Source: an uncultured Bacilli bacterium
GTDB lineage: Bacteria > Bacillota_I > Bacilli_A > RF39 > UBA660
DNA length: 64,000 nucleotides
Assembly: GCA_910580135.1 (NCBI GenBank)
Contig: CAJTXC010000001.1
Location: forward strand, 2,425 to 66,424
Direction of reading: 5' to 3'
Shown here: positions 20,962 to 62,900 of the stretch, in pieces
How the letters are laid out: the number at the start of each line of letters is the position of its first letter
Numbering within the stretch: position 1 is the stretch's first letter
Translations under genes and position numbers: made by a program
Notes under the pieces: generated by a model
What the model saw: the letters and a program-made list of their open reading frames with translations, nothing else
The model's database searches: none
What the model was told of the DNA's origin: nothing

Positions 20962-23900
20962 ATGATTTATAACAAAGGTGAAGAACATATGGATAATCCT
21001 ATTCCTGTAACTGAGGAAAATTTAGGATTTAACACTCCTTGGGAAGGTCATACTTCTAAAGAGATTGAAAGTTATGTATGTTCTGTTTTTGAAAAACTAT
21101 CTGAAAGTTCATCTGCACGATTTACTCTCACTCTTGTAGATGGAAATCTTATTAACTTTGTTGATGGAGTAGATAACATTGTATTCCGATATAAAGTTAA
21201 GTATGCTTCTTCTGAAGAAGTCTTTAATACGTATCGTTTGAGCATTACAGTTAATGGTCAGATTATTCAAGATGGTTATCAGTCTTCTTCTGAAGATGAA
21301 ATTCTAACATCTCCTAATCTTGCTCAGTATCTTAATTCTACAAATGAAAGTACTGTAATAGTTCGTATTCGTGCTTACGATTTGGATGAAAACAATAATG
21401 TAATTGCACAGTCGAGTAATACTATTACATTTAACCGAGTAGTTGGTACACTTGCCCTTCAAGGTATGGTTTTTGGTGCAGTCAATCCTAATGGTATTAG
21501 ATATACTGCTGATTTTGTTCCAACTACTGCTGCTCCTGTAGCTTATCTTAGGTATAAAGTAACTCAACCTGATGGTAGTCTTGTTACATTCACAGACTCT
21601 TCTACGGGGGAGGTAAATAACTATAATGAAATTCCTGTTAGTGCTTCTGGTACTGTAACTGTTCCACTACCAGATAATCTGAGTGATGGTGTTCATACTA
21701 TAACTGCTAAATTAATTGTAGGTAAAACTCAATCTGTTGAAGGTATTTCTACTAACACAATAGTTTACAATTTCCTTACTGTTTCAGATACTGTTGCAGA
21801 TGGAACTCCATTTATTATTGTGGATAGTGTAGATAGTCCTGTTCAGAATGATTATACTCCTGTTAGATATCTTGTTTATATTAAAGGAAAAGAAGCAAGT
21901 TATACTACTCCTCTTCTTTTACAAGATTATTTTAATAATAAGTATAATACTCAAGCTATTAAGAATGTAAAAAATGGAACTATTTATACTTGGAATTATT
22001 TTGTTCCTAATCTTACATCTCTTGGAATGATTACTTGCCAACTCCGTTTTGCTCTTCCTAAAATGCAAAATGGACAAATTGTTTATAATAATAATGGTGA
22101 ACCTCAAATAGACGGTACAGCAGGCACATATAAATCTATTTCTTTTACACCTAAACCAAGTACTATTCCTTGGAATCAAATGGAAGATACATTCCATCTT
22201 TCTGTTAGAAATAAAAGTAATGACGATTATGACGTTGGTACTCTTAAAGATAATGGATATGAAATGGAATTTGAAGATTTCCAATGGAATACTTCTGGTA
22301 GTGGTTATACTCAATTAACTATTGATGGTGTTACATCTAATGTTCTTAAATTTGTAGGTAACAGTAAAGCTACTATTAAAAATTTCTTCCCGTTCTACGA
22401 TACTACTCCTTATAATGCTGCAAATTCTGTAGGTGGTGGTATTCTTGCTACAGGTCGTACTCTTAAGATTAAGTTTGCTGTATCTAATGTTTCTAATGCT
22501 GAAGCTAAAGTTATAGATTGTTATGATGATAGTAATCCTGGTATGGGTTTCTATATTACTGGTAACGGTATGTATCTTAAGTTTGTAGAAGAACTTGTAA
22601 GTAAACCTGAAGAGTATCAAACTGCATCTGGTCATAACGATAGACGTTTTAGTGAAAATAAATGTATTGAACTTTGTATTACTATTCAACCATATTGGGG
22701 TGCTGGTAATATAGAGTCTGCTCATGAAGTTCGATACTATATTAATGGTGAGCTTGCTGGTTTCCGTAAGATTGCTGCTACAACGTCTTTGAGTCAAGTT
22801 GTACCTAAAACTATATCATTTGGAGGTAAAGGTGCTATCTTGTATCTTTATGAAGTTAAATATAAGAATAAATGTATTACTCCTTTTGAAGTTCTTCAAG
22901 AATATGGTATGAGTCAAGATAGTTCTAAGGCTCTTAACAACTTCTATGAAAAGAATAGTTTTTATACTCTTCGCACTAATTCAAATGGGGAAACTTATCC
23001 TGAAATTACTCTTAAGGATGCAATTAACTATGGTAAATATTTAGCAAGCAAAGGAGTAACTGATTTTGCTGTTTTTGTTACTACTAATGATTGTAACGCT
23101 GAACGATATACTGCTAATGGTGGTAAAGCTAACACAAAAGAGTATGCTCAAGATGCTGAATCTTTATATATTTATAGATTCCGTCAAAATGAAAAAGGAG
23201 AAGGTGAAATTGACCCTGATATGACTTTCTATATCGAAGGTCATGATGATAATGAAGAACAAACTTGGTATCTAGGTGAAGAAGATGGTGAAACTAAAGG
23301 CGCTCTTCGTTTTCGCCGTCAAGGTACATCAACAGCTGATGGTACTAAAGGTAATATTCGTTGGGATGTTCGTGCAACTTGTCTTCTTCATAAGTTTAAT
23401 CCTGCTACTCAGAGATTCTTTGATGAATATACTAAGATTAAGAAAAAATGGGAAGGATTTTATATTCCTGATAAAAATGCTATTCCTTGTTTCCTTGTAA
23501 CAGCTAAAAAGAATGTTAATGAGTCTACTCATACTCGTAACGTTCCTACAGCTAAATGGTTTGAAGCTTGTTCTCGTGCTCTTGCTAAAGCAGATGAGAA
23601 ATATGAGGATATTCTTACTCCTCCTCAAAGGGCTGAATTAAAGAGTATTCAAACTGCTTATCCTAGTCTTAGTCGTTCACAGCAGATTGACAGAATTAAG
23701 ACTCGTCAAGTTATTGACGGTATTACTTCTTTAGGATTTAGAATTCAATATTCTAAAGACGCTGCTGGTAAATATCTTCCTGTTACTGACCCAACTCTTT
23801 CTACTCTTGAATGTGAATTTATAGGTCAATATGATTTGACTACTGATAAAAAGAATATGAAAATATTTGGTTTTGGTGGTCATATTGAACATAATTCAGA

Positions 23901-25827
23901 CGGTAGTTTTGATTGGGTTAAAGATACAGACGATGAAGATTTCTCTTTAGAGTATGGTAATAATACCAATCCTCTGTCTTCTTTTAAGAGTCAAAACTGG
24001 GGAACAGCTGCTGCTCGTAATGATTTTGAATATAGGTATCCTGAAGATATAGATACAATTCCTGGTCTTGGAGCTTCAAGTACTGAAACTCCTAGTATCG
24101 GACTTGAACTTGATGGTCCTATGCAAGCTCTTTATGATTTTGTTGCTACTTGTGACCCTAATAAAGAAGAAGGTATTTATTATAGGAATGGTGGTAAATA
24201 TACTGGTCAACTTCCTTTCTTAAATGGTGGACAAAATCTAATTGACCCATTTACTAAAAATCCTATTAGTCTTGGAAGTTCAGCAGATGATACTGTTGCT
24301 AACCGTAAGATTAAATTTTATAATGAACTTAAATATTACGGAGTAGTTAATCAACTTCTTATTTATTATATTGGAACTGTAGATACTCCTCTTGGTGTTG
24401 ACCAAGAAGCTAAGAATATCTTTATGGGTCGATATGGTGATAGAAAACTTTCAAGTGGAGAAATAGTTGCTGGTGATGTTATTCAAGTTAGTAATAATAT
24501 AAATAAGCTTCTTCGTATTCTTGGTTACGACTATGATACTAACTGGCGACTTGATAATAATAATAACTTTAAGTTCCTTTATACAGTTCTTTATCAAGAC
24601 CATCTTTATGATGCTGGTGGTTCTGTTCTTTGGGATTTAATCAGAGAATGCTTTGCTACTGAGATTGCTGAAATGAAGAGTCGTCTTTATGGTACTCTAC
24701 TTTCTAAATCAGTAATTAACAATAACGGAGATATAACGAATGGTGTTCTTTATTATCTATTTACTAAACATATAGATAATTATAACTCTATTCAATATAA
24801 TGCTAACTCTGAATTCTGTTATACTTCCAAAGCAAGTGATTATCCTAAATCTCACGGTTCAGCTCGTGAAGATATTGAATGGTTTGTAGATGGTCGTCTG
24901 AGATTTGTATCTGGTCTTGATTTTAATCCTGATAAAAACAGTAATGATACAAGTTCAGACTTTGGTAAAGGACGTTTCTATGGAACTCCTACTCTGCCTG
25001 CTAACCTTGATGACGGTAATTACTACAATATGTTAGGATATACTAAAGATGAAATTGGTTCTAATGGTAGTCCTATAACTCCTGTAGTTAGTAAAGAAAA
25101 TAGATTTGCTGTTACTGTAACTGCATATGAACGTACTAATTTGGCATTTGCTAAAGGTCGTCCTGCAAGTACATTTAATAGTGTATTTATTAATGTAACT
25201 CCTACTGTAGTAAACGGTATTATAACAGGTTACACTCGTCCTGAAGTCACTCTTAAAGCTAAAGAATTTTATAATCCTGGCATTTCTGATGCTGCTGTTT
25301 ATCTTCATGGTTGTAAACAAATTAAGACTATTGTAGGTCTTGAGAAATGGTATCTTGAAACTATTAACTCTTGGGGTGATTTAACTAATGTTGAAGAACT
25401 TAATCTTGGTAGTCTTGATGAAATTACTCTTCCTGATGGTACAAAAGCAGCTTACAAAAATCCGAATTTAACTTCGCTTAACTTGGTTGCTGACGGAAAA
25501 CCTGTTATATTTGGGTCTTGTAAAAAGCTAAATCTTGCAGGTATTTCTAATATGACTCAAGTATCTCTTCTTGAATTTCCAGTTCTTGAAGTATTTGAAG
25601 GTCGTAATATGCCTGGTACTTCTGAAGTTGTACATCCTGTAGGAAATAGTCTTAGTGAAGCAAATTATGGAGATGGTCTTACTAAATGGGAAATAAGTAA
25701 TAAGCCAAATCTTGAAATTATTACTTTCCAAAGTATAGATGATATAAATACAATCAGTGTTACTCAATCTTCACAAACTGCTTCTGTTAAAGCAATTAAT
25801 ATGCTTATAGAACTTGTTAATAATTAA
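20962..25827 (+). CDS. large tail/receptor-binding-module protein
   Basis: 1621 aa immediately upstream of the DGR target gene; contains a GC-motif copy. Confidence 0.4.
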   Translation: MIYNKGEEHMDNPIPVTEENLGFNTPWEGHTSKEIESYVCSVFEKLSESSSARFTLTLVDGNLINFVDGVDNIVFRYKVKYASSEEVFNTYRLSITVNGQIIQDGYQSSSEDEILTSPNLAQYLNSTNESTVIVRIRAYDLDENNNVIAQSSNTITFNRVVGTLALQGMVFGAVNPNGIRYTADFVPTTAAPVAYLRYKVTQPDGSLVTFTDSSTGEVNNYNEIPVSASGTVTVPLPDNLSDGVHTITAKLIVGKTQSVEGISTNTIVYNFLTVSDTVADGTPFIIVDSVDSPVQNDYTPVRYLVYIKGKEASYTTPLLLQDYFNNKYNTQAIKNVKNGTIYTWNYFVPNLTSLGMITCQLRFALPKMQNGQIVYNNNGEPQIDGTAGTYKSISFTPKPSTIPWNQMEDTFHLSVRNKSNDDYDVGTLKDNGYEMEFEDFQWNTSGSGYTQLTIDGVTSNVLKFVGNSKATIKNFFPFYDTTPYNAANSVGGGILATGRTLKIKFAVSNVSNAEAKVIDCYDDSNPGMGFYITGNGMYLKFVEELVSKPEEYQTASGHNDRRFSENKCIELCITIQPYWGAGNIESAHEVRYYINGELAGFRKIAATTSLSQVVPKTISFGGKGAILYLYEVKYKNKCITPFEVLQEYGMSQDSSKALNNFYEKNSFYTLRTNSNGETYPEITLKDAINYGKYLASKGVTDFAVFVTTNDCNAERYTANGGKANTKEYAQDAESLYIYRFRQNEKGEGEIDPDMTFYIEGHDDNEEQTWYLGEEDGETKGALRFRRQGTSTADGTKGNIRWDVRATCLLHKFNPATQRFFDEYTKIKKKWEGFYIPDKNAIPCFLVTAKKNVNESTHTRNVPTAKWFEACSRALAKADEKYEDILTPPQRAELKSIQTAYPSLSRSQQIDRIKTRQVIDGITSLGFRIQYSKDAAGKYLPVTDPTLSTLECEFIGQYDLTTDKKNMKIFGFGGHIEHNSDGSFDWVKDTDDEDFSLEYGNNTNPLSSFKSQNWGTAAARNDFEYRYPEDIDTIPGLGASSTETPSIGLELDGPMQALYDFVATCDPNKEEGIYYRNGGKYTGQLPFLNGGQNLIDPFTKNPISLGSSADDTVANRKIKFYNELKYYGVVNQLLIYYIGTVDTPLGVDQEAKNIFMGRYGDRKLSSGEIVAGDVIQVSNNINKLLRILGYDYDTNWRLDNNNNFKFLYTVLYQDHLYDAGGSVLWDLIRECFATEIAEMKSRLYGTLLSKSVINNNGDITNGVLYYLFTKHIDNYNSIQYNANSEFCYTSKASDYPKSHGSAREDIEWFVDGRLRFVSGLDFNPDKNSNDTSSDFGKGRFYGTPTLPANLDDGNYYNMLGYTKDEIGSNGSPITPVVSKENRFAVTVTAYERTNLAFAKGRPASTFNSVFINVTPTVVNGIITGYTRPEVTLKAKEFYNPGISDAAVYLHGCKQIKTIVGLEKWYLETINSWGDLTNVEELNLGSLDEITLPDGTKAAYKNPNLTSLNLVADGKPVIFGSCKKLNLAGISNMTQVSLLEFPVLEVFEGRNMPGTSEVVHPVGNSLSEANYGDGLTKWEISNKPNLEIITFQSIDDINTISVTQSSQTASVKAINMLIELVNN
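21597..21618 (+). repeat. GC-motif copy 7 (CTCTTCTACGGGGGAGGTAAAT)
   Basis: inside ORF 20962..25827, read as SSTGEVN. Confidence 0.8.
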
Positions 25828-25834
25828 TCAAAAC

Positions 25835-28090
25835 ATGGCATTACAAAACTTTACTTGGAACAATGGGACTCAAAGTAGTCCTATTGTTCTATCCTTTGAA
25901 CAAATTGCAGCTCTCTCTGCTGCTGGTAAAAATCCTGATATTACTACAGATATTGGCGGATTTATTACAACGAATAGTCATAAAATTCAAAAGTTTCTTA
26001 AACTTTCTCTTGAAGAGCAATTTCCTAAACTTACGGTTGTTGTCGATGAAGAACTTGCTGATACTTTTGGAGTTAATGTTAGTAATCCTAATATAAATGA
26101 AGGAAGTTCTATCCCTATTAATATAACTGGAGATTCTGGTATTACTCATGATTATCTTCTTTGGAATCTTAATTATAAGAGTGTAACAATAGATGGAGAT
26201 ATATCTGAAGCTATTATCAAATCTCGTATTCATATTACTAATGGACAAATAGTAGTAGATGACCCTCAAGAAAATGCTAGTTGGCAAGTTGTACTTGAGA
26301 TTACTGCTTATCCTAGTTATTATGAAGGAACTAATCTTTCTTCTATTCCTGAATCTAGTCGTCCTAGCTTTACTGTAGCTATAAATGCTAAAGCTATTAC
26401 AGCAATTACTGCTACAACTAAAGAAGAAATTCCTATTAATTCTAGTGTAGAAATAAAAGTAACTCCTACTCCTTCTGATTCTACTAAACTTAAAGGAGCA
26501 ACTTACACTTATACTACGAGCACTCCTAATACAGTGTTTTGTGCTGGTGATTATATTAGAACTCAAGGAAATTCAGGTGCAGGTGTTGTTACTGTAAATC
26601 TTAATACCTGTGGTGGTAAAGTTAAACTTAATACTACAGTTAATTTTACAGTATATGATTTACGTCCTATGACTTTCATTATAGACCAAAGGTATCTTTC
26701 TAATCTTAGTGACCCTGTTGGAATGGTATCTGAAAACTGTATTCTTAATGCAGATGGTAGTCTTACTAGTATTTCTAATACAGGTAAAGATGGTAATCCT
26801 AACAACAATACTCTTACTTGGATTAGGCAAAATACTCATGCTTTTGTTAGTCGCTATATGGGTTTTTCTGGTCTTAGACTTAAACAACTTAGCGATACTA
26901 CAAGAAAGAAATTTGCTGATGGTACAAGTTCTGTAGACTATATATCTAACGAAAGCGGAGAATTTGACGTTTTCCTTAAATTTGGTAGTGATATTTTCTA
27001 TAAAACCGAAGCATTTACTCCTCAAGGACAAGCTAATCCTAATGTAGATTATGTTGCTGTTACTATAGCAAAAGAACTTTCTGAAGGAGAAAGTGAAGCT
27101 AATTGGGTTAAATGGAGTCAATATAAACTTATTGGAGTTTATCCTGCTTGTCAAATTGGTAATAAACTTTATAGTCTATCAGGAAAACGTTCTGTAAATA
27201 ATATTTCACAAACTAATAGTATAGCTAGAGCTAAAGCTCGTGGAACTAATTTTAATATTTGTGATTATGATATGACTAAATTATTTGCTTTCTTATTCTA
27301 TGGATATTATAGTTCTTTAGGATGTCAGCAAATATGCGGTTATGGTACTTCTAATCTTGTAAATAATGTTTATTATCCTAAGATTACAGGTGGTACTGAC
27401 GAACTTGCTATGACAGATACTGATACCACTACTGGTAATGGTGCTGCTACTCCTGATTCTGACCAAATTAAAGCAGGTACTGGTTCTGATATTAAATCGG
27501 TTAACTTCTGGGGTCTTGAAAAATGTTGGGGAGATTTATCTGAGTGGATTTCTAATCTTAGAGTTATGGAAGCTGCTCGTCCTGAAAGTAACAATACTCC
27601 AAATGTATCTGATTATATAGCTGATTATCTTGATGAGTATATTAGTATAACTATTACTAAACAAGATGGTACAGATGTAACTTATACTTCTAAAGCAGAT
27701 TTCCTTGCAGCTTATGATAATCCTGCTTCTCGATTCTTAGCTATTACTGATAAGAACAATGTAATTGTTCGAGCTATTGATGTAGGTAAAACTGCTAATA
27801 GTGAAGGATATATTAAAAAGATGATTTTTGGTAAGCACGCGGATATTATTGCAAAAGAGTATAATAATGGCGCTGGAGCTGATACTGGTTTTTGTGATTA
27901 TGGTCGCGTTAGTTCTGCTGGTCGTGTTGCGCTTCGGTCTGATTATTCCGCTAGTCCTGCTGGTGGGGTTGGTTGTCTCCATGCTTGGGCTGCGGCTGGT
28001 AGTGCTTATTCGTATGTCGGTGCTCGTTTGCTTTATGACGGAGATGAGAATACTGTTTATATTATAAACGACGCAACAGAAACTCTTTAA
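25835..28090 (+). CDS. DGR target protein (tail-fibre-like) with a C-terminal variable region
   Basis: ATG at 25835 (the track's 25814 start is a TTG); the 3' 135 bp match the downstream TR with adenine-specific mismatches; the VR ends 18 codons before the stop, as in C-type-lectin-fold DGR targets. Confidence 0.7.
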   Translation: MALQNFTWNNGTQSSPIVLSFEQIAALSAAGKNPDITTDIGGFITTNSHKIQKFLKLSLEEQFPKLTVVVDEELADTFGVNVSNPNINEGSSIPINITGDSGITHDYLLWNLNYKSVTIDGDISEAIIKSRIHITNGQIVVDDPQENASWQVVLEITAYPSYYEGTNLSSIPESSRPSFTVAINAKAITAITATTKEEIPINSSVEIKVTPTPSDSTKLKGATYTYTTSTPNTVFCAGDYIRTQGNSGAGVVTVNLNTCGGKVKLNTTVNFTVYDLRPMTFIIDQRYLSNLSDPVGMVSENCILNADGSLTSISNTGKDGNPNNNTLTWIRQNTHAFVSRYMGFSGLRLKQLSDTTRKKFADGTSSVDYISNESGEFDVFLKFGSDIFYKTEAFTPQGQANPNVDYVAVTIAKELSEGESEANWVKWSQYKLIGVYPACQIGNKLYSLSGKRSVNNISQTNSIARAKARGTNFNICDYDMTKLFAFLFYGYYSSLGCQQICGYGTSNLVNNVYYPKITGGTDELAMTDTDTTTGNGAATPDSDQIKAGTGSDIKSVNFWGLEKCWGDLSEWISNLRVMEAARPESNNTPNVSDYIADYLDEYISITITKQDGTDVTYTSKADFLAAYDNPASRFLAITDKNNVIVRAIDVGKTANSEGYIKKMIFGKHADIIAKEYNNGAGADTGFCDYGRVSSAGRVALRSDYSASPAGGVGCLHAWAAAGSAYSYVGARLLYDGDENTVYIINDATETL
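27900..28034 (+). repeat. DGR variable region (VR)
   Basis: 135-bp match to 28182-28316 at a constant offset of 282 with no indels; 35 mismatches, every one at a TR adenine, none elsewhere; locally GC-rich because A is replaced by G/C. Confidence 0.85.
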
Positions 28091-28181
28091 GATATAATTA
28101 ATAAAGGTAAGATTGGTCTATATAATGATAGGTATTTCTAACACAAGATACGAGGTAATGGACTTGCTTAGTTAAAAAGAG

Positions 28182-28316
28182 ATAGTAACGTTAATTCTAC
28201 TAGTAATGTTGCACATCAGTCTAATAATTCCACTAATCCTAATAGTGGAGTTAGTTGTCTCAATACTTGGAATACAGCTAGTAATACTAATTCGAATATC
28301 AGTACTCGTTTACTTT
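28182..28316 (+). repeat. DGR template repeat (TR)
   Basis: adenine-rich cognate of the VR; encodes AAY (Asn) codons at the diversified positions; followed by a 170-nt spacer and the RT gene. Confidence 0.85.
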
Positions 28317-28488
28317 CCTGTTGGTTCAACAGAACGTTGATATAATTATTGTAGTAAACATAATCTTACCTCACCTCTTGGTGGAAAATAAAGTATGGGT
28401 TAGTAAGTATAGTAAAAGTTCACTTGAAACTGATGAAGTTAGAAAAGAACTTTCAGGTAAAGAAAGCCGGTGACCAACAGAAATTAAA

Positions 28489-29742
28489 ATGAAGATTTAT
28501 AGAAATCTTTGGGATAAAATTGTAACCTTTGAAAACTTTAAGCTTGCTTATAAAAATGCTACTAAAGGTAAAAAGCATTATAAAGAAGTTAAGATTATTG
28601 AAAGAAAAGGTGTTAACCGTTATCTTCGTAAACTACTTGAAGAAGTAAAAGGTAAAACTTATAAAGTTTCTGCTTACGATATATTTACTCGTTTTACTGG
28701 AGAAAAGTATAGAGAGATATATCGTCTGCCAATGAAAGATAGAATTGTTCAACACGCTCTTATGGTTATCATAGAGCCTATCTTTAGAGAAACTTTTATT
28801 AAAGATACTTATTCTTCAATTAAAGGTAGAGGGATACATAATGGTTTAAAAGCTATTAAAAGAATTGTTAAATCTCGCAAGTATAGATATTATCTTAAGA
28901 TTGATGTACATAAATGTTATCCGTCTCTTGATAAAGAAATATTAAAAGCTAAACTTGCTCGTAAATTTCATGATAATGATTTACTTTGGTTATTATTTAC
29001 TATTATAGATAGTTGCGATAAAGGAGTTCCTATTGGCAATTATACTTCTCAATATTTTAATAACTTTTATTTTAGTGATTTAGCACATTACTTAAAAGAA
29101 GAGTTAGGTTTAGATACTATTTGGTATTGTGATGATTTAGTTGTCTTTGGTGATGATAAAGATAAACTCCGTGAAGTTTTAAATACTATTAATAGAAAAA
29201 TGACATTACTTAATGTTCGTATCAAAGAAAACTATCAAATATATAATATAGAAATTCGTAGTGTGGATATGCTTGGTTATAAAACAAGACCTGATTATAT
29301 TCTTATTAGAAAGAATACTAAAAAGCGTTTTATAGCTAAAGTTTCCAAAATGGATTTTAATAATCTTACTAAGAAAGATATAAATACACTTGGTAGTTAT
29401 TGGGGAATATTTTGTCATGCTGATTGTAGACATCTTTGGTTTAAATATACTGGTGTGAAAACATTTAAAGAACTTAATATTAACGTTCATAAACGAGATT
29501 TTGTTAAAGATTTACTTGGAGTCAAACTTGAAATTAAAAGTTGTATGTGCTTTAGTAAACGTGGTCAAGAATGGCTAAGAATTGAATGTTGTTATAATAT
29601 AAATGGAGAACAACATGATAATGTTTATATAAGTACAAGTGCTGAAAAACTTGTTGAAGCAGGTAAACAACTTAATGCAAGTATGTTTCCTTTTGAAACT
29701 AAAATAATCGTTGATGATAAAGGTTTTTATGAATTTACTTAA
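28489..29742 (+). CDS. DGR reverse transcriptase
   Basis: 417 aa; KDRIVQHAL (RT motif 1/2), IGNYTSQYFNNFY (the DGR-type replacement of QGxxxSP; nt 29032-29052) and WYCDDLVVFGDD (YxDD, nt 29125-29136). Confidence 0.85.
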   Translation: MKIYRNLWDKIVTFENFKLAYKNATKGKKHYKEVKIIERKGVNRYLRKLLEEVKGKTYKVSAYDIFTRFTGEKYREIYRLPMKDRIVQHALMVIIEPIFRETFIKDTYSSIKGRGIHNGLKAIKRIVKSRKYRYYLKIDVHKCYPSLDKEILKAKLARKFHDNDLLWLLFTIIDSCDKGVPIGNYTSQYFNNFYFSDLAHYLKEELGLDTIWYCDDLVVFGDDKDKLREVLNTINRKMTLLNVRIKENYQIYNIEIRSVDMLGYKTRPDYILIRKNTKKRFIAKVSKMDFNNLTKKDINTLGSYWGIFCHADCRHLWFKYTGVKTFKELNINVHKRDFVKDLLGVKLEIKSCMCFSKRGQEWLRIECCYNINGEQHDNVYISTSAEKLVEAGKQLNASMFPFETKIIVDDKGFYEFT

Positions 29743-29754
29743 ATTGAAAATAAT

Positions 29755-30303
29755 ATGCGTTGGATAAATATTAAAAGTGAAGAACTTGTTGGACTTGAAT
29801 GTATTAATCCGAAAAACGATAAATATATTCTTAGACTATCTCCTAATTCTAAGAATATAGTTCAAGATGAACAAGATAGTAATGATACAAGGATTGTGTC
29901 AATAATTGTTAATAATAAGCCGTCAATAAATGATATTAAAAAACATTTGTTATATTTGCAAAAAGAATATGATAAAACTTCTGAAGTAGATTGTTTTATA
30001 CTTAATGGTAAAAAAGTTTGGATAGATAAAAATACTCGTATTGGACTTTTCAAACTTCTTGATATAGAAAAACAATCTAATACAGAAACTACTATTCTTT
30101 GGTTTAATACTACATCTATAGAAATAGAAGTTGATAAAGCTATTACACTTCTTACTACTGTAGAAAAATATGCTAAACAATGTTATGATAATACGCAAAA
30201 ACATTATGCTGAAATAAATCAACTTAGTTCTATAGAAGCTTGTTTACAATATGATATTACCGCAGGTTATCCTGCTATTTTAAATATTACATTAACAGAT
30301 TAA
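29755..30303 (+). CDS. hypothetical protein immediately downstream of the DGR RT
   Basis: 182 aa; no Avd-like features. Confidence 0.4.
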   Translation: MRWINIKSEELVGLECINPKNDKYILRLSPNSKNIVQDEQDSNDTRIVSIIVNNKPSINDIKKHLLYLQKEYDKTSEVDCFILNGKKVWIDKNTRIGLFKLLDIEKQSNTETTILWFNTTSIEIEVDKAITLLTTVEKYAKQCYDNTQKHYAEINQLSSIEACLQYDITAGYPAILNITLTD

Positions 30304-34625: not shown

Positions 34626-35168
34626 ATGAATAAATTTAATTTTGGAGTAGGAACTCCAACAAAAGGAATTATAGATAGTTCTTTTGTTCCTATAAAATAT
34701 AATAATAATTATAAAATAAATAATAAAGGAGTCATAATAAATAAGAATAATATTGTTTGTAAACCTTTTGTTAATAATAGTGGTTATTATTGTATTGGAC
34801 TATGGGAAAACAATGTCAAAACTACTTATTGTGTTCATAAACTTGTTGCTGAACATTTTATGAATAATTACGATGATAGTTTAGATATAGACCATATAGA
34901 TAATAATAAATTAAATAATGATATAAATAATTTACAATTAATAACTCATAGAGAAAATTGTAAGAAAAGACTAACTCCAAATATTTATAATGTTACTTTT
35001 GAAGGAAATATTATAAAACAATATAAATCAATAAGAGAAGCAGCAAACGATTTACATATAGGATATAACGGTTTAAGAGAATTACTTTCTAATATTAATG
35101 ATGAAAGTGTTATAATTAAAGTTTATAGTAAAATAAATAAAACTTATTTATATTTTAAGAGATATTAA
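34626..35168 (+). CDS. HNH homing endonuclease (AP2/HNH_3-like) with C-terminal NUMOD-like HTH
   Basis: 180 aa; VHKLVAEHFMNNYDDSLDIDHIDNNKLNNDINNLQLITHRENC (His-Asn-His core) plus a C-terminal IKQYKSIREAANDLHIGYNGLRELL DNA-binding helix; AT-rich, free-standing between structural genes. Confidence 0.7.
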   Translation: MNKFNFGVGTPTKGIIDSSFVPIKYNNNYKINNKGVIINKNNIVCKPFVNNSGYYCIGLWENNVKTTYCVHKLVAEHFMNNYDDSLDIDHIDNNKLNNDINNLQLITHRENCKKRLTPNIYNVTFEGNIIKQYKSIREAANDLHIGYNGLRELLSNINDESVIIKVYSKINKTYLYFKRY

Positions 35169-53894: not shown

Positions 53895-53960
53895 TTTATA
53901 TTAGTCGGCTAACAAAGTGGCTCAAATTAGATAAAAATAAATTAAATAAATTATAATATT

Positions 53961-56900
53961 ATGAGTTGTAATCTTTTTATAGATAGCACAGAAGTTAATA
54001 ATGCTATTGTAGCAGCAAGTAAAGGAAATAGTATTCTTGCTACAAGATATACTCTTGAATTTAAGAGTGAAGCGTTTGCTAAAGAACTTAAAGATAAATT
54101 AGGATTAAGTATTGATGAAATTCCTAAAAATAAACTTAATGAAGTAGTCAAACTTCTGCAAGAATATCATAATAGACTCTATCCTGATATTAATTATAGT
54201 ACCAAGCTTAATACGAGTGATTCTCCAATCACTCGTTTCGGGTATGATAGTGTTGCTACTCGTGAATTTGGTAAGAAACTTGCAGCTAATTTTATGTTAA
54301 GTGCTTATCATCAACTTGTTCATGATAAAGGTAAAACAATACAACAAGCTCTTAAAGAAATTAAAGAGAAAACAAAGAAAGATATATCTCCAAGAGATTA
54401 TTTTGCTAATACTGTAGTAGCTAAAGTTAAAAAACTTATTATTGAAAGAATTGTAAGTAGAAAATTAACTACTAAAGAAGAAGTTTTGCAATTAATGAAA
54501 ACAAATAATACTGCAAAACTTGAAGAACTATTTGCAAAAGATAATCGTATTGAAGATGCCAATCTTCTTGCTATGTATAAAGAAATACTTGGCAATAGAC
54601 GAGCTTTCTTTGAAGAAGTATTTCGTAATAACGCTCTTGGAGAACTTAGACTTAAGAAACAGCCTATAGCAGAAGATACTTCTTATGAAGCAATAGATGA
54701 ACAAGTAGAAGAAGAACTAGATTCTGAAGAAGGAAATGATTCTCCTACTGATGATAAAAACAATTCTATTAAAGAATTGAATGAAAAACTTGGTGACTAT
54801 AATAACTTTATGACTCATGTTGGAATGAGTATCAGAGGTTATTTTTCAAGTCTTCCTAGAATTATAAATGGTGAAAAATCTAACGGTAAATATGTTCAGG
54901 ATACCAATAATCCTTTTGGCATAGCAGATACAATGTCTGCTGCTCAATGTATTGCTGTTCTTTATTCTTATGGTAACTTCACTAATACAAAAACTATGAT
55001 AGATAGTATTCGTGAAATTGCTGATAATGTTCCGGGAATGGCAGCGTTTCATCAAGTTGCAGATTATCTTGACACTAATATTAGTTTTGCATTTGAAGTA
55101 TATAGAACTTTTGGTAAAGCTATTGTTAGCAAAATAGAAACTACAGATGCTAGTGGAGAATTTGGTAGTAGAACAAGTAATAGAACTGCTGATAAACTTA
55201 CTACACTTAAATTTGAATTTTTTAATAGTGCTAAGTCTACAAGTATTCGTTCTGAAGTAGAACATAGTAGTGATATATTTACTTCTATAAGTAAAAGACT
55301 TAAAGATTTACGTCAATTTAAAAAAGATATTGACTCAGATAGTTCTGTAAGTCCTGAAGATATAGAGGATTTCAATGAAGAAGTAAAGAAAGTTGCTACA
55401 GATTTATATAATCTTCTTAAACGATATTATCCTACTCTTTCAGATAAAGCTATAATAAATTATGTTAATTCTGGAAATCAAGTAGATAATCTTGCTAACT
55501 TAAGTAATATAGCTCAGCTTACAATAAAAGGAGCAGAGAAGAGTAAATTTACTTATGACAGCCGTCAAGCTGACCTTAATGCTCTTTATAGTAAAAGATA
55601 CCAACTTACACAAGCTCTTGAAAATGGCGAAAAGATAAGAAATGGTGCTTTTGAAGAAATTGAAAATCAACTTAATCAGCTTTATTCTATTGATTATGTT
55701 AGCAAAGAAACTCAAGAAGCTGCTTATCAATTAGCTGATGCCCTTGTTAAATTTAGTCTAATTAAGACTGAACTTAATTCTCGTAACGTACATGGTAATC
55801 AATCATCTGATGTTATTAACAACAGTATGATTACTAATATTATAAATACTCTTAAAGACCAAACAGCATTAGAGAATTTTGGTAAATATAAAGGACAATC
55901 CAAACAATATGATTTCAGTAATATTATGATTGAGCATCGTGATGAAAATGGAAATCTTATTAATTATGGATTGTTTACTCAGAATCCAGATAGTAAAGAA
56001 CTTACTCCTACTCCTTATGCTTACAGACTTCTTCAAAATACTTTATTTAGTGGTGCTGGTAGTGTAGTAGATGGTAAAAATGTTCTTTATTCTGAAATGA
56101 GTAGAGGTGACTATACTACTACAGCTTTCATTAATTTCTTTAGAACTGAAGATGATTTTAGTCAACAAACTGAAGCTGATAAAATAGCTTTTGCAGAATA
56201 CTTTATGCGTATTCCATCTGATGCTCCTAAGAATTTTATTATTAAAGCTCCTAAATATTCTGTTAATGGATTGTTTACAAAAGACGGTGTTAATACAAAT
56301 CATCCTATTTTCCAACAGTTTAGACAAGTATTTATACAAGAGCTTCAAGATATGGCTACAGCTATAAATGTTCTATTTGAACATGAAAGTGGTAAAGTTC
56401 GTCTTGATACAGATGAAAAATCACCTACTTATGGTATGCCTATATTTAAGCCTGGATTTGCTAATGATGCAGAAACTGCTCGTAAACTTTATAATAACTA
56501 TCATACTAAGAAAGGTAAAATTCTTAAAAAACTTTCTACAGGTCAATATAGTCTTTTAGGAGATGTATTTACTTCTGATAGGTTTAAAGTTACTATTCTT
56601 AATGAAAATGGTAAACTTGAAGCTGTTAATTTTGCTGATGAGATATTAAAACATTTCAATCTTCTTTACGGGGGAGCTAATAATACTTATCTCCATACAA
56701 CTACCACAAGCAATGGCGTGACTGTTCAACTTACCGATGAACAAAGTGCTATTATAAATGAACAACTTTCTAAGTTTATTATAGCTTACTCAAGTAGAGC
56801 TGTAAATGAGCTTAATGTTTATAGGAATTTTATTCCTGAAGGACTTCTTACAAAACGTAATGCGGCTGAATTTGCTCTTAATCATAGACTTATGTATATT

Positions 56901-59900
56901 AACTTCAATGATTTATTTGAGGGAGATACTAAGTTTTATAAAGATACACAAACTTTTCTTAAACGTGCTAAAGAAGCACAAGGTTCTGGTGTTCCTTATG
57001 GTATTGTAAATTATCAAATGGATTTATCCGAAGAACCTACTCTTGTTGAAAGTCCTCTTAATAATATAACATTTAATCACATATCTGTTGATGGAGTTAC
57101 TTCTCAAGTTAAAATAAATCAATATAGTAAATTTAGAGGAGTAACTATTAAAAATACTATTAGAACTGGTGATACAATTGGTACATTTGTAACTGATAAT
57201 AATGGTAATCCAGTTAAAGACGAAAATGGTAATTATAAGTTTGAAAAGCCTGGAGTTTTAGCTAAGACTCTTATAGATGCTCTTGTTGCATCTGGCATGA
57301 GTAAACCAAATGCTAAAATTCATGCTGCTAATATGATGGTGGGTTATACTAACACTACTGTCAATGATGCACAATCTTATATTACTTTTGAAGAATGGGT
57401 TCGTCGTATAACTGCTCGTGGTCAACTTCCTCAATATAAAGAACTTATAGATGCTGTACTTGATGAAACTAAGCCCTTAGATGCTAAAACTATTGGTCAG
57501 TTTATTCAAGTACAAAAGAACTTTTATTATGACCAACATTATAATGCTGAACTTGGAGTTATAGCTCCTCGTCAGATTAAAAATGCTGAATTTGTTATCG
57601 TTCCTCGTCTTGTTCGTGGTACACAACTTGAACAAGTTTATAACTTAATGCGAGAATTTAATATCGACCAGCTTAATACAGAAGAAACTTCTAAAGCAGG
57701 TAAATGTAATGTTCTTATATTATGGGATAATGAAGGAAATTTGACTGACGCTAATATAGCAGATTTTAGAGCTAATGCTGTTCATGCTACAGAATATTAT
57801 AATTATAATTATCTTTATACTCAACAAGAAACTCCTCAACATCTTGCAGCTGAGAACAAAGCTGGTATTCAGATAATGAAGAAAATTATAGATAACATTG
57901 ATTCTAATAGTGAACTTTATCCTCTTAAACAAAAGTTCTTTAATTTATATTCTCAAAATATTGTAGATAGTTATGAGAATTTAATGCAAGAACTTCATAT
58001 TAAACAAGATGAAAATGGAGAAATAAGTGCTTTTGACCAAGCTATTCTTTATGATATGCTTAAAGAAGAAGTTGGTCGTCTTGGTCTTGATAGTAATATG
58101 ATGGATTATGTTACTCTTGACAGGGATGGTGTTCCTATGATGCCAACTTATATGAGTAATGTTTCTACTAAACTTGAAAGTATTGCTCAAAGTTTGTTTA
58201 ATAATCGTATTACTCGTCAGAAACTTCCTGGTTGGCATGCTGCTCAGATTACAAATGTTGGTTGGACTGCTCTTAACGATACAGTTGATAAACGTAGTTA
58301 TAGTAAAAAACTTCAATATCATCCTGATGGTAAGCCTTATGTTGAAATAATGCTTCCTAAGAGCAATTTCCAAAATCTTGAATATAATAAACCAGATGGT
58401 ACTACTAAAACAGATGAAGAACTATTAGCAGAACTTGCTGAATCTGGACTTGATACAATGATTGGTTATCGTATTCCAACTGAAGGTAAACAATCTGTTT
58501 GTATTATGAAAGTTGTTGGGTTTACAGATGATGCTCTTGGTTCCACTATTGTAGTTCCTGATGATTGGGTTTCTCAAACTGGTTCTGACTTTGATATTGA
58601 CTCTGTTTATGGTATTCATTTTAGTGGAGAAGTAAATAAAGAAACTGGTAAATTAGAAAAAGTTCAATATAATAAAGAAGATAAACGTTCAGATAGAAAA
58701 ACAAAAGGACGTAATAATGAACTTCTTCAAACTATGATTGATATTCTTTCACATCCAAGTTCTTTAGAGGAAAATCTTTCTCGTTCTAACTTTGAAGATA
58801 TTATCAACGATAGAGATGAAGTTATAAATTCTGAACTTGCTAAACTTAGAAAAGCTCGTTCTCCTTATGATTTCTTCGACCAAGCTGCATATCAAGAAGA
58901 TGTAATGAGTGGTGCTAAACTTAAAGCATTTAGTGTTACTCGTGATACTTTTTGTTCTATATGTAATACAGTTCGTCCGAACATTAGTGTAGGTAAAACT
59001 GTTTCTGTTATTTATAAGAAAGATGACGGTTATACTGAAGCTGGTCTTAAGAAACATTTTGGAAATATAAAAAGACTTAAAGATGGTAGTGGTTGGATTG
59101 TAACACATGATACTTTAGGTTGGACTTTAGATAATAAAAATGTTGTTGGAAAGATTCTAACAGCTTATTCATCTCAAACTACAGCTCATATTCTCGATGC
59201 TGTAAAAGAAGGTTCTATCCCTAATGTTAATGATTTTACTTTCCAAGTATATAAGTTATTTCCTGATATAGGTTCTGATTATAAAACTGCTATTGCATTT
59301 ATGATGCAACCTGGTGTTACTAGAATAGTAAATATTTATAATGCTAATAAATCTATATATGGAGAAGAATCTGGTAATGCTATAAATGAAGCTATTAAAC
59401 AAATAGCTACAGAAATACTTAAGCTTGATGGAATTTCTATTCCTAAAAATGCTAGTGTAAAAACACTACTTAATAAACTTAAAAATATTTCTTCAGAAAT
59501 AGCAGAATTATTTGATGTAGTTGAAGCTGATAAATTTAAAATAGAAGATACAGCAGCAGCTAATATGCTTAATATTTCTGCTTCTAAACTTAGAGATAGA
59601 ATTAATCAAACTGGTGAGTTTAGCACTACCTCCCCCGTAGGAAGTAGAAATCAATTACTTTATGATTTAGGTGTTATTCTACAATATAATAAACTTAATA
59701 TTTTAGCTAATGATATTTCTGCTTATGCAAGAGTTTGTAATCCTGATAAGTTTGGTGCTAAGCAAACTATTTATGCTACTGCTAAAGTATTTGATGATAT
59801 TCAAACTCTTGTAACCGCATCTAACCCTTCTCTTACTGTAAATGGTAGAAGTTTTATTGCTGCTATTTATCCTGAAGTATTTAGAGGTATAGATGGTTAT

Positions 59901-62900
59901 ATGAAAGAAACTTCTATCGCAGAATCTGCTTATCCTCCTCTTAATGCTTTTTTACGATATGCTACTGCTCCTTCTATTAAAATAAATAGGGGTTTGTTTG
60001 CTACACAGTCTGATGAATTTAGGCGTGAAGTGGAAAAACTAGCTACTCTTTTTAGTAATGGTAGAACTCTTTCTGAAAAAGAATATAAAGATTTTCAGAA
60101 TTATATTCTTAATTATATTTATAGTCAAGCAAAAGCTATAAGTAACGCTGTTACTTATAAAGATGGAAATTTTGTTTATACTCAGACTGATACTCTTGAA
60201 GAATGTAGTCGTATTTATGGATATGGTAAAACTCCTAATCTTGAAGTAACAGATAAACATGGAGAAATTGTTGAGTTTAAAGTAGAAGATATAAATGATC
60301 CTACTGAATTAGAAATTCAACAGTTTGCTAGTCTTAGTCCTGCTCAAAAAATTCATTATATTCAACAAACTTTTGAAAATAGTGGTGTATTTAAATATAT
60401 AAATGTATCCCTTTATAATAGAGGTTCAAATGCAGGAAAACAGACTATTCAATATGTAGAAAATAATGAAGATATTGAAACTGTTTATAATGAATTTGAA
60501 AAATGTTTCTTTAATGATAATCCTTTAGTAGCACTTGCTGCTATGGATATTGTTAAATACGGTTTTGTTGTTGAAGGTTTTAAAATGAGAAAGAATGCTG
60601 TTAATAAAGTAATTAAAAATAGTGTTCTATTATCTGACAAAACAGGTATAATATCTGATATTTCAACAGCAATTGCTACAATTAAAGATAATGCTATTAG
60701 TACAAATCAACTTAGAAGAAATTATATTCGTAGCCATTCTAATAGTACTTTTATTTCTGGTAAAAGAGTTTATAAAAAGAAAGATGAACATGGTAATTGG
60801 AGATTTGAACTTACTCCTAGAGCTGATGGTATAATTCTTATAGACAATGCTGGTTTAGCTTCTAAATATGGAGTTATATATGACCCAGAACCTAACAATA
60901 GGAATTATCATCCTTATGAAACTAATAGTTATGTTAAGTTATCTTTTAATGGTGTATCAAATCTTTATAGGATTGTAAGTGTAAATGATACTTATATTCT
61001 ATATCCTGTAAACAAACTTGAAGAGAATGAAAATTCTGATTTCTCTGTAAATCCTTTAAATAATAAATTTTTAAGTGAAGAATATTACTTAGGAATTATT
61101 AATGATTTTCGTGACCAACTTAGAGAAAGAGATAGAATTGTAGAAGAACAATTACAAAGTGCTCAAGAAGCTGCTAAATTAGAAAGTAGAGATTTAACTA
61201 AAGAGGAGTATAATGAAATTACAGAAAATGCTCCTACTGTAGATTTTTCTGCTGTTTTAGAAAAACATAAACTTGAAAGGGATAAATATAAACCTAAGAC
61301 AGTTAAACGAGCAAGTGGTTTCTCTAAATCTTTTGATATTAATTCAAAAGATACAGTTAATACTGGAGGTTTTGAAGATGTTATATCTAAAGTAACAGAA
61401 AGATTTAGTGAAAATCCTTTTAGCACTCTTTATCTTCGTAGCACAGCTTTAAGTAATTATATAACTTCTACAGGTATTCATGGTAGTAGTATTCAAACTA
61501 TTAATGGAAGACGTTATGTAATTCAAAAAGTTAATCTTTCTCGTTTAAATAAAAAATATATAGGAGAAGAAAATAAAGATGTAGTTGTAAAAGAATCTAA
61601 TGCAGATATTCAAGAAATAATGCAAAAAGCTAAAGATGCTGGATATACTGTACATGATGTATTTATGATTACTCCTTATGAAGAAAATGTAGAAGTTATG
61701 CAATCTTCAGTTACTGAAGATATAAATGAACTTCCTAATTCTACAACATTAGGAGTTCAAGCTATGGCTACTATGTTTTCTCGTAGAAAATCTGAAGGTG
61801 ATATTGAAGCAGCTAAAGCTCTTAAGTTTCTTCAAGATAAACAAATAACTGGTTCTGCTCCATCTGTAAGCGAAAATACTAAAGATGTAATTCAAACTAC
61901 TGCTGAATATATAGATTGCATGGTTAGTAACTTGTTTACTGACATGAAATATTTCATTAAAGATGATAATTTACAACCATTTGCTATAAATAGTCCTGAA
62001 GCTATTGTTGCAATTAAAGCAGACCCTGCTATTAGACAGAGATTTTTGAAAACTCTTCTTGATGCTCGTGCTCTTGTTAAAAACTTTGCTATCATAAATG
62101 AACTTGATATTCAAGCTGAAGATGATAGTCTTAAACCTTTCTTGAATAAAATTAAAGAAAATATAAATAGACTTCAAAATGCTACAATTATTGCAGAAAC
62201 TGAAAGACTTTTTGCAAATGAGTTTCTTGCTAAACTTAGTAAAAATCCTTTAATTCAACAAGATATTATTAGTGTTCTTGATGGTTATCATAGTGCTTCT
62301 TCTTTTGATGCTTGGGTTGGAGATTTACAAGAAAGTTCTTCTCCTCTTATTCAAATTGTATCTAAAGAAGTAATGGCTGATATTCGTTCTAAAGAAATGA
62401 TGGCTATTAAACGAGTACAAGAATTTAGAAAGAAACTTGCTGATATTAAACGTAGAGCTAAAGAAGCAGGAGTAGATATTGATTGGAAAAAGATTATAGA
62501 TGAAAATGGTAGATTTATTCAAAATTATAATCAAACTTTCCTTGATAAACTTGCTGAACTTAGAGAAAATATATCTGTAGCTAAATCTGAATACGGTGTT
62601 GGAAGTATAGAACATCTTAAAGCCAAACTTGCTTATGATAAATGGAAATTAGCTAATATAAATCAACCTGTTGTAGATGAATATTATCGTCAAAAGATTG
62701 ATATAGAAGAACGTATGATTAATCAGTATGGTACTATTTATTCTGCTTATAAAAAACTTGCTGATAAACGTAGAGAACTTCTTAGTCATACAAGTAATGG
62801 AGTATTAGCTGATAATTATAAACAAGAACTTGAGGAAGTTAAGCGTGATATAAACAATCTTATTAATGATTGTGTTTATGACCAAGCTACAGGAACTTTC

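Follow-up and report, generated by a model that had tools for sequence, protein, structure and literature searches.

The window analysed here, a 64-kb stretch of contig CAJTXC010000001.1, holds between positions 25835 and 29742 a tail-fibre-like gene, two copies of a short repeat and a gene for a reverse transcriptase (RT). The question raised by this locus is whether these parts form a functional diversity-generating retroelement (DGR) that rewrites the tip of the fibre. The adenine-specific divergence between a template repeat (TR) and a variable repeat (VR), an RT of the DGR clade, a predicted lectin fold at the C-terminus of the target protein and natural variation of the VR with a constant TR together identify the locus as a DGR. 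Considering all the evidence, it is very probably a functional DGR of a crAss-like phage, which lacks Avd, carries its TR in a folded RNA and diversifies the lectin tip of a tail fibre. The initial annotation of this DNA had proposed a complete and apparently active DGR acting on the receptor-binding tip of the fibre, and the TR/VR comparison, the RT, the predicted fold and the VR variation all support it. It was also right in considering the element not novel in kind, as Avd-less DGRs of the same layout have been published for crAss-like phages (PMC7290462). Three modest but specific items are added to that knowledge: evidence of activity at the level of assemblies, an RNA scaffold for an Avd-less DGR that is backed by covariation, and a near-deterministic A>G change at TR adenines followed by G or C (AG and AC sites).

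The VR (27900–28034, forward strand) and the TR (28182–28316, forward strand) match without gaps over 135 bp, and the homology ends at both boundaries. The two repeats show 35 mismatches (26 A>G, 5 A>C and 4 A>T), every one of them at a TR adenine. Thus, 35 of the 44 TR adenines are altered in the VR and not a single C, G or T position is, which reproduces exactly the alignment reported in the initial annotation. The probability that all 35 mismatches fall on the 44 adenines by chance is 2.5e-24 (hypergeometric). The TR is non-coding and rich in AAT codons, while that of Bordetella phage BPP-1 uses AAC. The final 16 bp differ between the two repeats by a single A>G change and do not contain a GC-rich block. 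Between the VR and the TR there is a gap of 147 nt without any gene, and no second VR was found on either strand of the 64-kb window. Many of the more distant DGR loci (L039, L040, L042, L044, L050, L057, L060–L065, L068, L071, L077, L090 and others) have two to three VRs per TR, placed about 400–500 nt apart, and RTs that are 39–46% identical to that of the window, which has a single VR.

Target domain and reverse transcriptase

The target gene (25835–28090, forward strand) encodes a tail-fibre-like protein of 751 aa, or 752 codons with the stop (752 aa in the initial annotation); an in-frame TTG is located upstream at 25814. The end of the VR lies 53 nt from the stop codon, or about 18 codons, as previously indicated. 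The gene belongs to the tail module, after an open reading frame (ORF) of 1621 aa (20962–25827, forward strand) whose presence was confirmed, and before the crAss tail-ring genes. Residues 420–736 of the protein match the PHROGs tail proteins phrog_5302 and phrog_14959. Structure prediction of the C-terminal 353 aa (27029–28087, forward strand) gave a C-type-lectin fold bearing the VR and resembling TaqVP, TvpA, Mtd and AvpA. The VR is thereby predicted to lie in a C-type-lectin domain, which is, like Ig-like domains, a fold tolerant to variation of the kind found in DGR targets, and the prediction agrees with the one proposed for this C-terminus. The identity to TaqVP, the DGR variable protein of Thermus aquaticus (PDB 5vf4), is just 13–18% at sequence level; moreover, TaqVP is bacterial, whereas the protein of the window is of phage tail-fibre type and has about 400 additional N-terminal residues.

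The RT gene (28489–29742, forward strand) encodes a protein of 417 aa carrying all the catalytic motifs. The motifs IGNYTSQ and YCDD that had been described were both found, within VPIGNYTSQ and WYCDD, and they correspond to the [I/L/V]GxxxSQ signature in motif 4 and the YxDD of the DGR clade. The best match of this RT, by sequence as well as by fold and with a wide margin, was bRT, the enzyme of BPP-1, and its identity to any GenBank phage record did not exceed 42%. The predicted model contains an extra beta-rich C-terminal domain at residues ~335–417 (29491–29739, forward strand), with strands at 346–357, 360–371, 374–383, 402–408 and 414–416 and a helix at 386–394. This domain is missing from bRT, of 328 aa, and from about half of the close RT homologues, which have either a long form of 414–427 aa or a short form of 325–340 aa. 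Comparison of its profile with PDB and a Pfam scan with E values up to 10 gave nothing significant. As to its function, the domain could be an RNA-binding or Avd-replacing module.

Avd was not detected by Pfam among 47 small ORFs of the window (E < 0.009), nor in precomputed Pfam matches within 10 kb on either side, and the absence of an Avd-like gene between VR and TR noted previously was also confirmed. An accessory protein, either Avd or HRDC, is frequent in DGRs without being universal, and Avd is missing from about a quarter of DGRs and from the published crAss-like DGRs (PMC7290462). One of these, the DGR of crAssphage LMMB, presents the same order of target gene, VR, TR and RT without avd. 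In both phages the target is of tail-fibre type with the VR, ending in SRL or ARL, at its extreme C-terminus, and the cassette occupies the end of the structural module, with a sporadic distribution in close relatives. The LMMB element was assigned by Morozova et al. 2020 (PMC7290462) to lineage 3/CLec3 of Wu et al. 2018 (PMC5758913). However, the two RTs share only about 35% identity, and that of the window has about 85 additional aa in its C-terminal domain; the phage belongs to a different subfamily, and the target has 751 aa versus 486 aa in LMMB. In contrast, the DGR of BPP-1 (mtd-avd-TR-brt; bRT-Avd-RNA ribonucleoprotein (RNP), PDB 8ub7) contains the Avd that was not found here.

Variation of the VR in natural populations

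An exact-sequence look-up detected the RT in at least 57 data blocks, from which four distinct assemblies with identical RT and TR were retrieved and compared with the window over 13–21 kb of common sequence. These assemblies differed from the window at 12–46 positions, and 8, 18, 10 and 20 of the differences, respectively, were in the VR. All 56 VR differences were at TR adenines, and the TR was unchanged in the five genomes with the common, 100% identical RT. The difference rate was 59–148 per kb in the VR, and the flanks showed 0.19–1.35 per kb (binomial p between 1e-15 and 8e-35), that is, about 100–300 times higher per base in the VR. Furthermore, 28 of the 44 TR-adenine positions varied among the five genomes. 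The population check on VR heterogeneity suggested with the initial annotation was in this way carried out, with assemblies instead of reads, and had a positive outcome. Since the excess of VR differences is restricted to adenines and the TR and the RT are constant, we conclude that the DGR is, or very recently was, active. For an abundant and uncultured lineage of crAss-like phages, the probable determinant of host range is hereby located in 44 codons of a single tail-fibre gene and seen to be rewritten in natural populations, which is of use for host prediction and phage engineering.

The same signature was recurrent in related loci. A first RT search gave 15 IMG/VR loci with RTs 42–66% identical to that of the window, and 14 of them showed the VR-TR-RT layout with adenine-only mismatches, the remaining one being an RT fragment only. 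Among these relatives, loci with a common TR bear different VRs. An RT profile search yielded 80 loci, 76 of which presented the DGR signature. An exact pattern derived from the TR had no match in IMG/VR. Contigs L001, L004, L006 and L011 begin inside the VR, and L101 starts in it or at its end. These breaks are consistent with VR heterogeneity and with the TR/VR repeat confusing the assembly graph.

The outcome at each TR adenine was related to the following base. It was tabulated for the window (27900–28034 versus 28182–28316), L001–L015, L016–L019 and L020–L099. In the clade of the window, TR adenines before C or G were found as G in the VR in 89–95% of the cases (n = 226), and those before A or T gave a broad spectrum. 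At third codon positions of this clade, 40 of 43 such adenines were G in the VR, mostly at fourfold-degenerate sites (GCA>GCG, GGA>GGG, GTA>GTG, TCA>TCG). As G was the outcome at synonymous sites in a genome of 30% GC, neither protein selection nor codon bias explains the conversion of AG and AC adenines to G, and protein selection, which had been considered as a cause, was rejected for the fourfold-degenerate sites. A wider set behaved similarly: in 90 TR/VR pairs with RTs 35–46% identical, the AG context gave G in 92% of the cases, and at fourfold-degenerate sites G was present at 53 of 57 AG and 9 of 9 AC positions. For bRT it has been described that a template G at the 3' side of the adenine biases errors to A>G but lowers their rate (bioRxiv 10.1101/2025.03.24.644984). 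A context map of the same enzyme reported about 30% misincorporation overall and an excess of A>C in AC contexts (PMC12875486). The natural data go in the same direction but are far nearer to complete, and the AC context differs. The enzyme itself, G:T heteroduplex repair or another cause may underlie the A>G change at AG and AC sites. These data from natural populations allow context-dependent adenine mutagenesis to be compared with the recent bRT context maps.

Structured RNA, proposed mechanism and alternative readings

The initial annotation placed a spacer of 170 nt between TR and RT. The spacer is indeed present and measures 172 nt, but it proved to be more than a spacer: its RNA is conserved, covaries and is related to Rfam RT-17, and the functional RNA starts upstream of the TR. 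Its structure was studied in 11 loci of graded divergence with RNAalifold and with an independent count of pairs. Directly after the TR, the 5' strand of a helix named P1 (CUGUUGGU, 28318–28325, forward strand) starts 2 nt past the TR/VR homology and pairs with ACCAACAG (28473–28480, forward strand), a candidate cis-primer strand located 8 nt before the RT start codon. P1 was independently predicted by RNAalifold and presents double-sided changes at three of its eight pairs. Its 5' strand begins 0–3 nt past the end of the homology in seven of ten loci and overlaps the homology in the other three, and its 3' strand is found 0–13 nt ahead of the RT start codon in all loci. A local hairpin, CUGUUG-GUU-CAACAG (28318–28332), present in the window and L101 but not conserved in other relatives, could compete with the long-range P1 helix for its 5' strand. 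Single-sequence folds of the window and its relatives additionally gave a hairpin, P1a (28326–28340, forward strand), whose presence is conserved and whose sequence is variable.

Further downstream, the hairpin P2 (CACC-UCUU-GGUG, 28371–28384, forward strand) is followed by an A-rich tract. Its sequence CCUCUUGG is invariant in the close clade, and relatives show the compensatory forms AACC/GGUU and UGCC/GGCA. The helix P4 (28398–28468, forward strand) joins GGU at 28398–28400 with GCC at 28466–28468 and encloses a conserved UAGUAAGUAU block, the hairpin P3 and GAAAGCC; its middle pair is AU in five sequences, GC in four and GU in two. P3 (28416–28452, forward strand) is conserved in presence and not in sequence, and it covaries, with AAGUUC/GAACUU in the window versus AAAUUC/GAAUUU in L102. 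Altogether, 98.9% of the alignment cells of P1, P2 and P4 were paired, in comparison with 19–54% when the partners were slid, with 14 double-sided changes, and none of 500 shuffles reached this result.

The TR itself is enclosed by a second long-range duplex. The upstream (US) strand, GGUAAGAUUG (28106–28115, forward strand), lies 76 nt before the TR and 16 nt past the stop codon of the target gene. It pairs with the downstream (DS) strand, UAAUCUUACC (28361–28370, forward strand), which is directly 5' of P2. In a search positionally anchored in each locus, US:DS runs of 9–13 bp were present in 14 of 17 related loci, with different sequences and preserved complementarity. At most 21 of 500 shuffles reached the observed run in most of these loci, the value for L104 being 48 of 500. 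In the anchored alignment of 11 sequences 99.1% of US:DS cells paired, with 34 double-sided cells, eight of ten pairs double-sided and 0 of 500 shuffles reaching the score. When the 96 nt preceding the TR were compared with the full spacer by RNAduplex without anchoring, long meaningless duplexes resulted, and this search was discarded. All these results evidenced that the TR sits in a conserved RNA scaffold supported by covariation, and the functional RNA would start upstream of the TR, at about 28106.

Comparison with Rfam allowed this RNA to be placed among known motifs. The region from P2 to P3 (28367–28449, forward strand) matched RT-17 (RF03020) with 28.7 bits (gathering threshold 40.4, E 7e-4) and RT-18 (RF03021) with 28.1 bits (gathering threshold 41.3), both below threshold, and the P2 hairpin aligned to the first hairpin of both models. 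Like the window, all relatives with an RT at least 52% identical scored below the RT-17 gathering threshold. In ten more distant DGR loci (L013, L027 and eight others), RT-17 was found above threshold at the TR-RT position; a US:DS run of at least 9 bp was present in seven of nine RT-17-passing loci tested, and a P1-like helix in several. The RNA of the window and the RT-17 and RT-18 motifs are all located directly upstream of an RT gene. RT-17 and the window have in common a core formed by a 4–5 bp hairpin with an NCUU or UCAU loop, an A-rich linker, UAGUA, a hairpin and GAAA, although the RT-17 model does not include the two long-range duplexes. On these sequence grounds, the RNA of the window is best described as a divergent relative of RT-17, and RT-17 is, judging from its position in those loci, tied to DGR function. 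Weinberg et al. 2017 had tied RT-10 alone to a DGR and, for other RT motifs, went no further than suggesting that they might have a DGR role (PMC5737381). RT-10 was located by these authors in the BPP-1 spacer, but no RT-10 match was found in the window, nor could any sequence similarity be detected between the two spacer RNAs. Nevertheless, the elements observed by cryo-EM in the BPP-1 RNP, surveyed there in Avd-containing DGRs, resemble the topology of P1 and US:DS (bioRxiv 10.1101/2023.10.23.563531), with the difference that P1 is just outside the TR/VR homology in most of our loci and inside it in BPP-1. By analogy, P1 may act as the primer duplex and US:DS as a stop or scaffold element.

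From these elements the following mechanism can be proposed. The transcript would begin at or before ~28106, probably by read-through from the tail-fibre gene. The pairing of 28106–28115 with 28361–28370, next to the conserved UCUU hairpin and the A-rich tract, would leave the TR inside the folded scaffold, and the bases just 3' of the TR (28318–28325) would pair with 28473–28480. The RT would then bind the scaffold RNA and most likely prime in cis from the P1 duplex, so that copying would start at the 3' edge of the TR, with misincorporation opposite adenines. The resulting cDNA would replace the VR within the final 64 codons of the tail-fibre gene, altering the ligand-binding face of the lectin domain and, presumably, receptor specificity and host range. 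A more specific model is possible, although we regard it as tentative. According to it, this RT clade would form an RNP independent of Avd, in which the RT-17-type RNA and the two long-range duplexes would wrap the TR and stand in for the Avd barrel, possibly with help from the C-terminal domain of the RT. Adenines before G or C would be converted near-deterministically to G, only those before A or T, mostly in AAT, being randomised. The AG and AC adenines would thus be silent equivalents of G, free to drift in an AT-rich genome. As a system of an RT and about 390 nt of RNA with explicit RNA elements, the locus offers a compact Avd-less case for the study of DGR mechanism.

Several observations weigh against the interpretation of the locus as a functional DGR working through this RNA. 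No GC-rich initiation of mutagenic homing (IMH) site, stable hairpin or cruciform such as those of BPP-1 was found 3' of the VR, where the DNA folded no better than shuffled sequences (z-score of −0.06), so that a hairpin of BPP-1 type was not supported there. In addition, bRT is inactive without Avd, and in the absence of Avd the RNP of the window must differ from the only one known structurally. Regarding the RNA, the counts of the anchored US:DS alignment are inflated because the US strand was chosen by complementarity in a 135-nt window. No promoter was identified, as sigma-70-like promoters were not enriched (15 found versus 12.1 expected) with a tool that does not include Bacteroidota-type promoters, and a scan between the target gene and the RT gave no forward-strand terminator. 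Finally, activity was deduced from five consensus assemblies, and the window and L016 differ in just two VR patches (27905–27912 and 28001–28016) and have rare A>C and A>T states in common between them. This pattern points to partial-length conversion or recombination between alleles as a source of some VR diversity, instead of replacement of the full VR in each event.

The latter observation fits the mosaic or recombinational history that would be expected if the element were a relic, active in ancestors, and the VR differences were standing alleles shuffled by recombination between co-infecting phages. Published crAss-like genomes do often hold incomplete DGR cassettes (PMC7290462). However, the RT ORF is intact, with all its catalytic motifs, and shows 100% identity between the assemblies of at least 57 data blocks, with the same TR in the five genomes. 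A decaying relic would also gather non-adenine mismatches, and none of the 56 VR differences was of this type despite the VR rate being 100–300 times that of the flanks. Moreover, the RNA helices are kept by compensatory changes, a sign of continuing selection on function. For these reasons we consider a relic improbable. Even less credit can be given to the possibility that TR and VR are simply duplicates, with a divergence restricted to adenines by chance or by protein selection, and that the RT is an unrelated enzyme of retron or group II intron type. The only data in its favour are sub-threshold NCBIfam matches to a retron RT and to a group II intron RT, the latter with 86 bits versus a cut-off of 300. 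This reading was refuted by the chance probability of 2.5e-24, by the recurrence of the signature in 14 of 15 and 76 of 80 related loci, by the 56 of 56 VR differences at adenines and by the RT itself, whose GxxxSQ motif is of DGR type and whose best sequence and fold match is, by a wide margin, bRT; we assign it practically no probability.

A different doubt concerns the spacer structure, which could serve mainly for translational or transcriptional control of the RT gene and not as a priming or scaffold RNA. The 3' strand of P1 is so close to the RT start in all loci that P1 could hide the initiation region. Nevertheless, the other strand of P1 abuts or overlaps the 3' boundary of the TR and the US:DS duplex spans the whole TR, neither of which is needed by a pure expression switch, and the topology agrees with that of the BPP-1 RNP elements (bioRxiv 10.1101/2023.10.23.563531). 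Such a control as the main function seems unlikely to us, though less so than a relic, and the two roles are compatible with each other.

Phage identity and genome neighbourhood

The terminase TerL, portal and major capsid protein of the window matched the crAss PHROGs phrog_6681, phrog_6547 and phrog_11589 with E values from 1e-113 to 1e-138, and genes of the Pfam families CrAss_Ring_1 and CrAss_Ring_2 were found downstream of the DGR. The window thus contains the crAss-type TerL, portal, major capsid and tail-ring proteins that define membership of Crassvirales. Its TerL is 88% identical to that of Wotdevirus murinus (isolate ctcc615) and 82% to that of Hacihdavirus animalis (cr271_1), both classified into Intestiviridae, Obtuvirinae. 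By sequence, this phage is a member of Crassvirales, Intestiviridae, near Obtuvirinae. Megablast of the locus did not reveal any near-identical GenBank phage record.

The closest classified relative has no DGR cassette. This relative, ctcc615, presents the same tail-module synteny as the window without TR or RT, and its tail-fibre homologue is followed, after a gap of 8 nt, by a DUF4376 gene. The part of its fibre in common with the target of the window is limited to residues 350–613 of the latter, with 30% identity. These data indicate that the DGR and the VR-bearing end of the fibre are, as far as sequence comparison goes, one module that is present or absent within the Obtuvirinae-type subfamily. 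The distribution of DGRs is sporadic in other crAss-like genera too (PMC7290462). The ORF directly after the RT (29755–30303, 182 aa), found within about 13 nt of the RT in every close relative, was considered as a possible accessory of the DGR. This was rejected, as it is a DUF4376-type tail-module gene and the gene directly after the fibre homologue of the DGR-less ctcc615 is of the same type. It follows that the DGR module sits between the fibre gene and the DUF4376-type gene. The 182-aa ORF had no PDB match, and its matches to tail-fibre PHROGs were only weak.

Some other features of the window were also recorded. Within the tail module, just ahead of the tail-ring genes, an ORF at 34626–35168 matched HNH_3 (Pfam E 1.6e-9) and may be a homing endonuclease. 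From 53900 to 64000, past an ORF of 2321 aa, coding is on the minus strand with only small ORFs of up to 139 aa, an arrangement suggestive of a cluster of small genes in divergent orientation. At the opposite end, positions 3–75 of the minus strand matched Rfam FopS (RF04319), a Bacteroidetes small RNA family, with 60.5 bits versus a threshold of 56; such a host-type small RNA motif on a phage hints at a Bacteroidota host. The window uses the standard genetic code, its 31 long ORFs ending in TAA (25), TGA (5) and TAG (1). In the RT ORF of L003 (633–1886), a phage of the type of L106, there are six in-frame TAG codons at conserved positions before a TAA end, for instance YTS*YF where other RTs read YTSQYF, which suggests recoding of TAG to Gln in this crAss-like lineage.

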